In this document: positions 57,590-60,628 of the stretch, piece by piece
Numbering within the stretch: the stretch's first letter is position 1
How the letters are laid out: each line of letters starts with the position of its first letter
IMG/VR virus record: IMGVR_UViG_3300048503_000032
Span: 1 to 64,000 of that record
DNA: 64,000 nt
Origin: a virus
Taxonomy: Duplodnaviria; Caudoviricetes
Direction: 5' to 3' (one strand)
Position numbers and translations under genes: made by a program
The notes under the pieces: generated by a model
Seen by the model: only the letters and a program-made list of their open reading frames with translations
What the model was told of the DNA's origin: nothing
The model's database searches: none

Positions 57590-60500
57590 GTGAACCTCGC
57601 TCACCTGTCTACGATCTCTACCAATGCGACGTCGGGCCTCCTGTCGAAGACACAGGGGGCTTTGGCGCGTGCTATCGAGGCATATTCCGATGATGAGGAT
57701 AGAGATTCGTCTGGGAAGTGGACGAGCGGGGATGATCGGCGCGCTCAGAGTGTTTTGAAGCCTCAGGTGGAATACGAGCAAGTTGTGAAGAACTACATGG
57801 AGGATATCCGGCAAGGTAAAGATGTCGGAGCGGTGCTGGTGAGCGATAAGGATCATTCGCATATCGTCGATGGAAATCATAAGACTGAGGCGTACTTGCG
57901 TTTGGGTAAGCAGCCACCTCGCGTGTATGCTGTGGATCGGCTTAAGACACTTATCCAGATGGGACAGGAAAATAAAACGGCTGATGAGGTAGCTGACAGT
58001 ATCGGAGAATGGCTGAAGTCTGAAGACATAAAAGCCTACTCGGAGGATGAGGAGCGCGACGATCACGGCAAGTGGTCATCGGGCGGCAGTCTGAAGCCTG
58101 CGGAGGAAGATCGCACTCAGTGGCCGCAGCACATTCAGGATCTGAAGGTTCCGCCGGCGTGGAAGGACGTTCACTACTCGGACGATCCTAAGGCGGCTCT
58201 GCTGGCGACTGGCAAGGATGCCAAGGGCCGTGATCAGCGGGTGTACTCGAAAGAGTTTCAGGACTCACAGGCGGGGCTGAAGTTCGAGCGGGTGGAAGAG
58301 CTGGGGAAGCAGATGGGATTGATCGACCAGCAGTTGATTGCCGATCGCAAGAGTGACGATGATAAAACCAAAGAGCATGCGGATGCGGCTCTGCTGGTGC
58401 GCACGATGGGAGTTCGTCCTGGCAGCGAGACGGATACCAAGGCCAAGGTACAGGCTTACGGGGCGACCACGCTCGAGGGCCGTCATGTGCGCGTTAGCAC
58501 GACGGGCAATGTCAGATTGAACTTCACCGGCAAGAAGGGCGTAGGCATCAATCTGCCGGTCGAAGACAAACAGGTCGCTGCGATGCTGGTATCGAGAAAG
58601 GCCGACGCTGGCAACAGCGGACAGATATTCCCGCATGTGTCGAACAGCAGTCTGCTCGACTATGTCCACGACAACCTGGATCATGGCGGTTTCAAGAGCA
58701 AGGACTTCAGGACGTATCTCGGCACATCGACGGCTCAGGGTCTGGTGTCATCGATGAAGGAGCCTGCTACGCCCAAGGATTATGTGAAGGCTGTTCGGTC
58801 TGTGGCGTCGGCTGTAGCGGAGAAGCTCGGGAATACTCCCGCGGTAGCGTTGTCATCCTACATAGCTCCACAGGTTTTCAGCGGATGGAAGATGCATGCT
58901 GGTGTGACAGCAGAGGCTATGGAGTTGCCTCAGGTCTACTACGGTGAGGTGTCGGATAATCAGCGCGACTTCAGGGATGTGGCTGGGCTGTTTGATAGCA
59001 GTGATACGGATGATGGCGACGACAGCGATGGCAGTGTGGAGAAGATGCTCGGTTTCGATCCTGCGAAGATGGGGATTGCAGCATCAGTTTTACGACGGTC
59101 TACTGCGAGGGAACGTACGCAGAAGAAGGCGCTGTTCGTTAAGCGTGAATGTGCGACGTTGCTGGCGGAGTTCGATGAGGAGCAGCATCCACGCGATGAG
59201 CATGGAAAGTTTACGGATGGTGGAGGCGAGACCACTACCGATCGCACCAGTTGGCACTTCGATGACTTCCATCCAGAGGATAAAATCAACGGTATACCTC
59301 TGGCGCATATGTCGCATCCGGACTTCGAGAAATATACGAATCCTGACTTGAAGGAGACACCGCTGAAGGTCGGGCCTGGTCAGCATGCCGCGGCCGGCGT
59401 GATCATGATCGAGCCTGGGAACAAGGTGTGGATTGTCACGCCGGATAAATACTTCGGCGGGTACCGCAACACATTCCCTAAGGGCACACAGGAGTCTGGG
59501 GAGGCTTTGCAGACTACGGCGGTGAGGGAGACTTATGAGGAGTCGGGACTGGTGGGAAAGATTACAGGCGTGCTGGGCGACGTTGATCGCACTACGTCAT
59601 CTACGCGTTACTATATCGGGGAGCGGGTCGGGGGTTCGCCTGCGATGGCGGGCGAGGAGACCTACGCGGTCAAGCTCCTAGACCTCAACGATCCGAAGAC
59701 GGATGAGCGGTTGCAGGATGTAATGGGGAAGACCACCAAGGATGCGGACGTGCTCAGCATGATCAGAGAGCATCTCGGCATCGAGCAGCCTGCTCAGCCT
59801 GAGGCTCCAGCGACGGGAAAGATGACGGCAGCCGACATCATGGACAAGAAGATCGGCGGATCGCAGGGGTCGAATGTTGGCGGGTTCTATAAGGGCACGG
59901 ATGGCGTGGACAGGTATGTGAAGCTGTACAACAATCCGGAGCAGGCGCATGGCGAGGTGCTGGCGAATACTATCTATCGGGATCTCAACATCCCGGCCCC
60001 ACAGTCACAGGTGTTCAGTTTGCCGAACGGCAAGGAAGCATTCGCGTCGGATATAGTTCATGGCGGAAAGACGCTAGAGCAGACTGGTGTGACTAAAGAG
60101 AATGCTCGGGAGGTGTTGAAGGGCTTCGCCGCGGATGTGCTGACTGCGAACTGGGATACGGTCGGATTGACTTACGACAACATTCTGCTGAAGGGCGGAC
60201 AGGCGTATCGTTTGGATAATGGATCGGCATTCCTGTATCGCGCGCAGGGCGGACAGAAGCCAGATGCTCTGCTTAATAAGGTGACGGAGCTGAAGGGATT
60301 TCTTAGTCCTACGGTCAACCGAGAATATGCGAAGATGGCGAAGGTAGCGGGATACACTTCGGCGGATGAGATACCCGGATTTCGTTCTCAGGTGAAAGCG
60401 ATTGCGGCGCTCGAGAAGGTTGCCGGTGGTTGGGGTAAGTATTTGGATGCGAAAGCACCGTATCTGAGCGCGAACGAAAGGTCTAAGATAGGGGATATGC

Positions 60501-60628
60501 TGACCAGTCGAACGGCCGGGTTGAAGGAAGCAGCGGGTGTGAGCGATTCATTGCATGACAAGATTAAGAATCTATTTTCAGAGGCGGAAGATTCTGTTCG
60601 GCGAGAGGTAGTCGCATGCAGTCGGTAA
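57590..60628 (+). CDS. Multidomain protein: ParB-like + topoisomerase IB + Nudix + PI3/4-kinase/HipA-like domain
   Basis: IVDGNHK; VPPAWKDV..GKDAKGR.QRVY..RPG..YGATTL..FTGKKG..KDFRT..LGNTPAVALSSY; GTQESGEALQTTAVRETYEESG; GSNVGG..YVK..EVLA..ANWD..DNI..LDNG. Confidence 0.88.
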   Translation: MNLAHLSTISTNATSGLLSKTQGALARAIEAYSDDEDRDSSGKWTSGDDRRAQSVLKPQVEYEQVVKNYMEDIRQGKDVGAVLVSDKDHSHIVDGNHKTEAYLRLGKQPPRVYAVDRLKTLIQMGQENKTADEVADSIGEWLKSEDIKAYSEDEERDDHGKWSSGGSLKPAEEDRTQWPQHIQDLKVPPAWKDVHYSDDPKAALLATGKDAKGRDQRVYSKEFQDSQAGLKFERVEELGKQMGLIDQQLIADRKSDDDKTKEHADAALLVRTMGVRPGSETDTKAKVQAYGATTLEGRHVRVSTTGNVRLNFTGKKGVGINLPVEDKQVAAMLVSRKADAGNSGQIFPHVSNSSLLDYVHDNLDHGGFKSKDFRTYLGTSTAQGLVSSMKEPATPKDYVKAVRSVASAVAEKLGNTPAVALSSYIAPQVFSGWKMHAGVTAEAMELPQVYYGEVSDNQRDFRDVAGLFDSSDTDDGDDSDGSVEKMLGFDPAKMGIAASVLRRSTARERTQKKALFVKRECATLLAEFDEEQHPRDEHGKFTDGGGETTTDRTSWHFDDFHPEDKINGIPLAHMSHPDFEKYTNPDLKETPLKVGPGQHAAAGVIMIEPGNKVWIVTPDKYFGGYRNTFPKGTQESGEALQTTAVRETYEESGLVGKITGVLGDVDRTTSSTRYYIGERVGGSPAMAGEETYAVKLLDLNDPKTDERLQDVMGKTTKDADVLSMIREHLGIEQPAQPEAPATGKMTAADIMDKKIGGSQGSNVGGFYKGTDGVDRYVKLYNNPEQAHGEVLANTIYRDLNIPAPQSQVFSLPNGKEAFASDIVHGGKTLEQTGVTKENAREVLKGFAADVLTANWDTVGLTYDNILLKGGQAYRLDNGSAFLYRAQGGQKPDALLNKVTELKGFLSPTVNREYAKMAKVAGYTSADEIPGFRSQVKAIAALEKVAGGWGKYLDAKAPYLSANERSKIGDMLTSRTAGLKEAAGVSDSLHDKIKNLFSEAEDSVRREVVACSR

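Follow-up and report, generated by a model that had tools for sequence, protein, structure and literature searches.

Polyvalent Proteins and Related Systems

Polyvalent proteins join many unrelated effector domains in one chain and show extreme mosaicism; their genes lie among late or virion genes, and packaging followed by injection is their predicted fate (Iyer, Burroughs, Anand, de Souza and Aravind, 2017, PMC5512222). They are thought to be the phage's first strike on host defences, and their loading, possible cutting and shuffling are the questions that they raise. Here we describe a gene at positions 57590..60628 (+ strand) of a 64,000-nucleotide window, which is the whole stretch analysed and comprises the first 64 kb of the 106,772-bp metagenomic phage record IMGVR_UViG_3300048503_000032 (Duplodnaviria; Caudoviricetes). 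Its product of 1012 amino acids (aa), P0001, is probably a phage polyvalent effector, laid out as a string of independently folding enzyme cassettes with a junction peptide before each. The cassettes are a possible ParB-like unit, a type IB topoisomerase (TopoIB), and a Nudix hydrolase fused to a CtkA-like kinase. The protein is of a known general kind, and what it adds is a conserved, repeated junction, selected at the protein level, at the cassette borders.

The domain repertoire overlaps with that of the described polyvalent proteins, which includes ParB-like domains, kinases, ADP-ribosyltransferases (ARTs), GNAT, InPase with Nudix neighbors, and fusions to MuF and portal proteins (PMC5512222). 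With TopoIB, a Nudix domain, a kinase-like fold and one further small module, P0001 lies within the range of 2-15 mostly enzymatic domains that defines the group, and the junction carriers described below are polyvalent proteins in the sense of Iyer et al. (2017). However, that account names no inter-domain junction motif (the words linker, spacer, interdomain and glycine-rich are absent), does not treat TopoIB as a polyvalent domain, and describes a kinase that is C-terminally truncated, whereas the kinase of P0001 is predicted to have the full CtkA/PI4K-like fold. The combination of TopoIB, Nudix and CtkA-like kinase is unusual.

Other viruses load enzymes into their particles by better-known routes. 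The internal proteins of phage T4 and its Alt protein, which carry a capsid targeting sequence, enter the prohead and are later injected together with the DNA. In T4 and in phiKZ/SPN3US the prohead protease trims the N-peptide at a consensus shared with the major capsid protein (MCP) and scaffold, L/I-x-E and A/S/G-x-E, respectively (PMC5694885, PMC10052503). Here, in contrast, the putative site is hydrophobic-x-Ala (mostly hydrophobic-x-Lys elsewhere in the junction family), it is repeated between cassettes as in a polyprotein, and it is followed by a universal core of 17 residues with no counterpart in T4 or phiKZ. Poxvirus particles contain a type IB topoisomerase together with kinases that work immediately after entry, but they belong to another virus realm and their enzymes are separate gene products rather than cassettes of one chain. 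MuF toxins and SPP1 gp7-type proteins are also head-associated carriers with exchangeable C-terminal enzymes (Jamet, 2017, PMC5576092; Bxa, PMC11699363). They differ in that P0001 and its genome have no detectable MuF domain and in that P0001 has several cassettes instead of a single toxin, and the MuF-toxin papers (PMC5576092, PMC11699363) contain no description of the junction motif.

A Conserved Junction Before Each Cassette

The original prediction had noticed three related linkers in this gene, AIEA↓YSDDEDRDSSGKWTSG at 57671, DIKA↓YSEDEERDDHGKWSSGG at 58025 and TLLA↓EFDEEQHPRDEHGKFTDGG at 59156 (the arrow marks the putative site), and all three are found there. Junction 1, YSDDEDRDSSGKWTSG, occupies 57683..57730 (+), junction 2, YSEDEERDDHGKWSSGG, 58037..58087 (+), and junction 3, EFDEEQHPRDEHGKFTDGGG, an HPRD variant, 59168..59227 (+); each is recognized in the sequence, the AlphaFold2 (AF2) model and a profile, and junction 2 additionally as a swap breakpoint. 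Each junction begins with a helix whose last residues are hydrophobic-x-Ala, then runs through an acidic stretch and the core R-D-x-x-G-K/R-W/F into a tail rich in Gly. A regular expression for acidic-RD..GK[WF], run over the window and the complete 106,772-bp genome in all six frames, returned only these three occurrences, all in this open reading frame (ORF). In the full-length AF2 model the linkers fall in segments with a predicted local distance difference test (pLDDT) below 50 between folded domains, with a predicted helix before each, and so coincide with the domain borders of the model as had been proposed. The linkers are true module junctions. Ahead of the first lies an N-terminal peptide (residues 1-31, 57590..57682, +) that ends in A-I-E-A, is modeled as a helix at residues 14-32 with low pLDDT, and is also kept in the relatives P0310 and P0312. 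A weak similarity links junction 3 to the C-terminal part of a portal PHROG (phrog_15528, E 0.027).

Comparison with relatives shows that the junctions are the exact breakpoints of cassette swaps between near-identical genes. The relative P0002 is 89-97% identical to P0001 in shared parts, carries another module in the interval from junction 1 to junction 2, and holds an extra ADP-ribosyltransferase module, with a junction of its own, ahead of the Nudix-kinase unit. Identity between the two begins at the Tyr of junction 2 and ends at the GKFTDGG of junction 3. A third variant of module 1 occurs in the same 90% cluster, the near-identical P0299 likewise has another module in place of module 1, and in the syntenic relative L003 the first gene holds modules that belong to the second gene of this phage. 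Within the gene, the codons of conserved junction residues differ from copy to copy (Arg AGA/CGC; Gly GGG/GGC/GGA; Ser TCA/AGC/TCT/TCG), and the four junctions of the GGPGSG type in the second ORF, described next, likewise use differing codons. This argues for selection on the peptide and not mere DNA identity.

That second polyvalent ORF (60616..64000, +, continuing to genome position 65010; L032:616-5010; 1464 aa) is the 3' neighbor and overlaps the stop codon of the polyvalent gene. It contains ParB-like units (phrog_1033, E 2.8e-8), two paralogous "GWVT" modules that each end in a CxxC zinc-finger-like segment, and an InPase-like C-terminal end. Its modules are joined by junctions of a second type, hydrophobic-x-Ala↓GGPGSG[RW]H, and also by one VDA↓YKMRDNDGVF. 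The GGPGSG type recurs in the relatives P0005, P0009-P0011, L003 and L006. A minimal two-cassette protein is encoded further on by a 192-aa ORF (genome 66398-66976; L032:6398-6976), in which two small halves are joined by VTVDA↓GGPGSGRH.

The Junction Family in Other Proteins

Six linker copies, taken from the window and from two IMG/VR relatives, went into a linker profile (A4) of 31 positions. Searched against 1.84 billion cluster representatives, it gave 588 protein clusters at E<=1e-3 and 90 at E<=1e-10, a search of the kind suggested earlier for listing the attached domains. Carriers reach 3849 aa, with as many as 10 copies in one protein. Among the 154 best proteins 569 junction copies were located, with a median spacing of 248 aa, or about one domain, and with the first copy at most 60 aa from the N-terminus in 56%. 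The consensus of these 569 copies is phi-x-[K 47% / A 17%]-[Y/F]-S-[P/E/D]-D-[Q/E]-[P/A/E]-R-D-[D/E]-H-G-[R/K]-[W/F]-T-x-G-G-G, where phi is hydrophobic. A Pfam census of 35 carriers returned MuF, ADPrib_exo_Tox, ART-PolyVal, GNAT, Zeta toxin, DUF7178, 2'-5' RNA ligase, InPase and TopoIB. MuF was present in 5 of the 35 and no Pfam family in more than that, which indicates that the motif itself is covered by no Pfam model; there is no NCBIfam model for it either. Junction motif strings of both types (e.g., PRDDHGRW, HPRDEHG, GGPGSGR) were found nowhere in the searchable literature. We could not find the junction peptide described in Pfam, NCBIfam or that literature, and it appears to be new here.

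An exact DNA pattern for DQPRDDHGRW hit 22 loci in species-representative genomes, all of them Alphaproteobacteria, with prophages of Caulobacter, Nitrospirillum and Hyphomicrobium among the carriers. One of these loci encodes a portal protein, and others encode small proteins. In the portal protein, from a metagenome-assembled genome of an uncultured proteobacterium (L035:4014-5762), a junction ...SLGK↓FDPDQPRDDHGRWTATG and a tail of ~90 aa follow in the same chain. Small proteins of 230-360 aa with a conserved N-terminal helix region, ..LK[AQ]G↓FNPDQPRDDHGRW and variable C-termini bearing an HExxH or PD-(D/E)xK-like signature occur in Nitrospirillum, Hyphomicrobium and Hyphomicrobiaceae genomes (L037, L040, L047, L050-L052, L054), a layout like that of polymorphic toxins. 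Small junction-bearing proteins in general showed no capsid or scaffold Pfam domain, and thus no case of the motif at a known capsid maturation site was found. Among cultivable phages, Gordonia phages Forza (gp78, L030:7662-9866) and Phendrix (gp66, L031:7689-12128) have a carrier gene directly after the portal gene. Both proteins show an HPRGADGRF/W variant, KFDEAKHPRGADGRF and DWNEALHPRGADGRW, ~35 residues from the N-terminus, and a related kinase-like module. Homologous giant proteins are also encoded by Yersinia phage fHe-Yen8-01 and Pseudomonas phage Dolphis, and these lack the junction.

The Enzyme Cassettes

Module 1 (57731..58036, +) is a swappable cassette that is possibly ParB/Srx-like (VDGNHKTEAY). 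The original label of ParB-like finds a weak match to phrog_1033 (E 1.5e-4) and a DGNHK motif, in which Lys replaces the Arg of the conserved ParB active-site DGxHR, but no Pfam or NCBIfam match, and is kept as tentative. Compared with the ParB-like units of ORF 60616, the module gave a BLASTP E of 0.3, and the ESM atlas only a lead at 0.87; the AF2 model of this region is poor.

The next cassette is a type IB topoisomerase of the bacterial/poxviral type (58100..58927, +). It matches Pfam Topoisom_I (PF01028, E 2.5e-24, 86.4 bits against a cut-off of 23.7) together with Top1B_N_bact (PF21338), and Foldseek placed its model with 3m4a (E 6.5e-13) and with the variola TopoIB (E 1.3e-11). Alignment to the Deinococcus radiodurans TopIB structure (PDB 2f4q, E 8e-21) pairs the full pentad R, K, R, N, Y with identical residues, in agreement with the earlier impression of intact catalytic residues. 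Between this domain and junction 3 lies an acidic disordered tail followed by a long helix ending in T-L-L-A (58928..59167, +; pLDDT below 50 at residues 447-489, helix at 497-530).

The last cassette is double. Its Nudix hydrolase domain (59255..59797, +) was identified by Pfam NUDIX (PF00293, E 3e-11, 43.9 bits against a cut-off of 21.1) and by Foldseek matches to Ap4A hydrolase and DDP1, and the Nudix box is intact as expected, with the pattern G-x5-E-x7-REtyEEsGl and the translated sequence GTQESGEALQTTAVRETYEESGL. No junction separates it from the protein-kinase-like domain that follows (59822..60625, +), and the two form one conserved unit. No Pfam family matches these C-terminal 270 residues, but the AF2 model (pLDDT 86.7) has a predicted protein-kinase-like fold with conserved core residues, of the CtkA/PI4KII/CotH/actin-fragmin-kinase type. 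Helicobacter pylori CtkA (3akj) is matched at Z 17.3 (root-mean-square deviation 2.9, 208 aligned residues), well above the unrelated entries in the comparison, followed by PI4KIIalpha (4pla, Z 14.7), CotH (5jda, Z 14.3) and then Fam20, HipA and actin-fragmin kinase. The kinase module of the original prediction is thereby borne out at the level of predicted fold. Across 15 homologues K39, D117, N125 and D137 are invariant and D124 nearly so (numbering of alignment A3).

Probable Packaging in the Virion

Polyvalent proteins lie among late or virion genes or are linked to MuF or portal proteins. P0001 does so by position, its gene following the portal, a candidate protease-scaffold gene and a putative capsid gene, and through fusions of its relatives. 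Relatives of its TopoIB, 48-60% identical, are attached C-terminally to Phage_portal_3 portals, a kinase relative of 46% identity sits inside a MuF-kinase-ADP-ribosyltransferase (ADPRT) protein, and homologues of the Nudix and kinase domains are annotated as particle associated in Yersinia phage fHe-Yen8-01. Taken together, the position in the head-gene block, the portal and MuF fusions and the fHe-Yen8-01 annotation make packaging the most likely fate of the protein. The packaging claimed by the original prediction is thus favored by head position and by module relatives, although it stays inferred, for a phage known as a metagenomic record. On balance we think that the protein is synthesized together with the head proteins, is taken up by the procapsid and reaches the host along with the DNA, and that its enzymes act early in infection. 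Once delivered, they would act on DNA topology, nucleotide-derived molecules and host proteins. P0001 itself has no MuF (PF04233) or portal domain and no MuF match was found in the genome at E<=10, which counts against simple loading by MuF. Some other loading signal would therefore be needed, for which the N-terminal peptide and the junctions are candidates.

Are the Junctions Cut?

A hydrophobic-x-Ala sequence stands before all nine junctions examined in this phage (three in the polyvalent gene, five of two types in the second ORF and one in ORF 66398-66976), and thus before two unrelated motif types. The same pattern is found in two neighboring head genes. In 114 homologues of the putative MCP, phi-x-A↓AAD[YF] comes after a variable N-peptide of 9-41 residues, with P3 being I/M/L/V/F in 114/114 and P1 Ala in 113/114, and A-[ILM]-A-A closes the conserved N-domain of the candidate protease in almost every one of 121 homologues. 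A sequence pattern, phi-x-A, is therefore common to cargo junctions, putative MCP border and protease-domain end. Across the junction family, within-protein residue consistency peaks at positions -10..-7 before the core (ratio 2.2-2.9) and is ~1.0-1.5 after it, which would look like a lineage-specific recognition site beside a universal core.

Capsid maturation proteases offer a parallel. Herpesvirus assemblin, which has the fold of phage prohead proteases, cuts (V/L/I)-x-A↓S. HK97 gp5, which is cut after K103, reads F-N-K↓S at its maturation site and has the same shape as the commonest sequence before the junction motif, phi-x-K. Assemblin and HK97 gp4 are thus proteases of one fold whose short P3-P1 rules mirror phi-x-A and phi-x-K. 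However, the candidate protease here has no sequence match to them and the resemblance is in the site pattern only.

On this evidence we propose, tentatively, that the acidic-RD..G[KR][WF]-Gly peptide and its sister phi-x-A↓GGPGSG[RW] form a general cargo junction of tailed phages at which each phage's own head protease cuts, while the core aids retention in the head or exit with the DNA. Cutting would free separate enzymes that each keep the RD..GKW peptide at the N-terminus. The role in DNA association or co-ejection that the original prediction gave to this tag is hypothetical. The lineage-specific residues before the core would then be the protease determinant and the universal core would act in some shared step, for instance docking, retention or ejection. 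If this is true, the junction is a portable tag for loading and processing, and one short profile identifies injected effector enzymes across phages and prophages. The profile is also a search handle for unannotated injected enzymes such as type IB topoisomerase, which is familiar mainly from poxvirus cores.

Several observations weigh against cutting. The nine junctions are partly paralogous and are not nine independent events. The conserved Ala before AADY could belong to the folded MCP core, and the conserved Ala residues could be structural. Over the whole junction family Lys (47%) precedes the motif more often than Ala (17%), so that x-x-A is at best a lineage-specific rule. The core is near-invariant across phages with very different head proteases, which makes it an unlikely protease recognition element. 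Moreover, the candidate protease, ORF 54087, has no counterpart among curated protease families: its N-domain has no match in Pfam, NCBIfam or PHROG scans, genome searches with PF04586 (S78) and PF09979 (DUF2213) returned nothing, hhalign of its family profile against HK97 gp4 gave a probability of 0.1, and a PDB profile search with it yielded low-complexity noise only. Some polyvalent proteins, such as N4 virion RNA polymerase (vRNAP), enter the particle without being cut (PMC5512222). For an uncultivated phage, packaging and cleavage alike stand as predictions. Support for the cut after x-x-A by the head protease, as the original prediction envisaged it, is circumstantial: phi-x-A stands at 9/9 junctions, at the putative MCP border and at the protease-domain end, with Lys commonest elsewhere and the protease a candidate. 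That a phage head protease cuts at the junctions after hydrophobic-x-Ala is in our view possible but doubtful. The junction could mark where processing occurs, signal loading or ejection, or do both. With regard to self-cleavage, Asp-Pro, GDPH, LexA-type Ala-Gly and Ni-dependent S/T-x-H mechanisms were considered and rejected, the required residues or the companion domain being missing, and no metallopeptidase (MPTase) autoprocessing domain was detected in P0001.

Much the same facts can be read without any proteolysis. The protein may be packaged as uncut cargo, like beads on a string, with the junctions as flexible tethers and the core in a non-proteolytic role: it could dock the portal, scaffold or DNA, order the chain for threading through the tail, or aid refolding after ejection, while hydrophobic-x-Ala would simply cap the helix predicted before each junction. 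The universality of the core fits this account, since it is shared by very different phages and their proteases and capsids are not, and so does the occurrence of the motif after portal and MuF domains, which cannot leave the head. Transfer without processing is moreover described for N4 vRNAP and for some polyvalent proteins of plasmids (PMC5512222). Nevertheless, one signal would suffice for a whole chain and yet each cassette has its own, the first copy comes directly after a short N-peptide as propeptide sites do, and the putative MCP propeptide border and the protease-domain end show phi-x-A as well. We therefore hold uncut cargo to be rather unlikely.

The exactness with which cassettes are replaced or inserted at the junctions in relatives of 89-97% identity, and the movement of modules between two neighboring genes in L003, would also be expected if the junctions were recombination joints with no role in the mature protein, which might then be a late cytoplasmic multi-enzyme. 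We consider this improbable because copies in one gene differ at most synonymous sites, because 588 clusters and Actinobacteria-infecting phages of very different base composition retain the peptide, and because cargo is favored by the fusions to portal and MuF proteins and by the location of the gene in the head module. Finally, a polymorphic-toxin-like system for bacterial competition, with the junction as a VENN or PT-TG type pre-toxin border and the domains released by another peptidase or after entry into the target cell, would be in keeping with the small alphaproteobacterial proteins that join an N-region and the motif to a variable C-terminus with an HExxH or PD-(D/E)xK-like signature, with the frequent ADP-ribosyltransferase or Zeta-toxin domains of carriers and with MuF toxins being an established family (PMC5576092, PMC11699363), but is very improbable given that TopoIB, Nudix and kinase are not classic toxins, that no immunity gene was identified, that up to 10 internal junctions are unlike a single polymorphic-toxin border and that P0001 has no MuF domain.

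Genome Context and the Head-Gene Block

The genome is 91% complete by CheckV estimate and has a GC content of 54%. The polyvalent gene is a single open frame that runs from 57503 (TTG) or 57590 (GTG) to 60628. The GTG start is preferred by gene callers and relatives, and the N-terminus MNL[AS]HLSTIS... kept in relatives supports it, so the ORF claimed earlier is a real one. A megablast of 50-64 kb against the phage collection found no relatives, nor did a single-protein IMG/VR scan with P0001; an alignment-based IMG/VR scan did give matches.

On the same strand, 5' of the polyvalent gene, lie the portal, a 496-aa ORF, a 352-aa ORF, a terminator, a promoter-like element and three small ORFs. 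The expectation of a multi-enzyme protein near the capsid gene is matched by this order of portal, candidate protease-scaffold, putative capsid protein and then polyvalent gene. The portal gene (50896..54054, +) starts the head module and was identified by Pfam and PHROG portal families (Phage_portal, E 2.6e-31, residues 491-825). It holds a LAGLIDADG_3 segment (E 3.2e-6, residues 361-437) that looks like an intein or homing-endonuclease insertion, and its N-terminal region weakly matches a thymidylate-synthase family (PHROG).

ORF 54087 (54087..55577, +) is a candidate prohead protease-scaffold fusion. Its conserved N-domain covers about residues 1-175 and has A-I-A-A as its last residues; behind it comes an acidic, Ser-rich, coiled-coil tail. 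H87 and S132 are invariant in 20 aligned homologues, homologues carry PF27290 YonD_N, and ESM features place the protein near DUF2213 and Peptidase_S77 clusters (a lead only). Its candidacy as head protease rests on position, conservation and this lead. The ORF at 55614..56672 (+) is the putative MCP, so named from its position and abundance only, with a variable N-peptide and then I34-S35-A36↓A37-A-D-Y. It has more than 2,161 highly conserved homologues in metagenomes (60-90% identity), and the family shows a sharp conserved border, phi-x-A↓AAD[YF]LAPGAIEINRY, after the variable N-peptide. No Pfam, PHROG or NCBIfam model covers it, and tblastn against the phage collection found no relatives.

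Downstream of the putative capsid gene is a strong intrinsic terminator (56696..56723, +) with an 11-bp stem, 7 GC pairs and then a T-run. Beyond it, a promoter-like element (56831..56870, +) includes the 20-mer AAAATAAAGACTTGACACGT, an A-rich tract with TTGACA, followed after 17 nt by an extended -10 (sigma-70-like match 10/12). Four identical + strand copies of the 20-mer occur, at genome positions 16032, 43402, 56831 and 91690, and are probably one class of phage promoters. A promoter near the capsid gene, as originally proposed, is thus plausible at 56831, past the terminator, but its label of class C late is not confirmed. Between this element and the polyvalent gene, two tiny ORFs (57279-57428 and 57430-57546) encode hydrophobic, membrane-like peptides. 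They are odd for a head module and could be immunity or chaperone-like partners.

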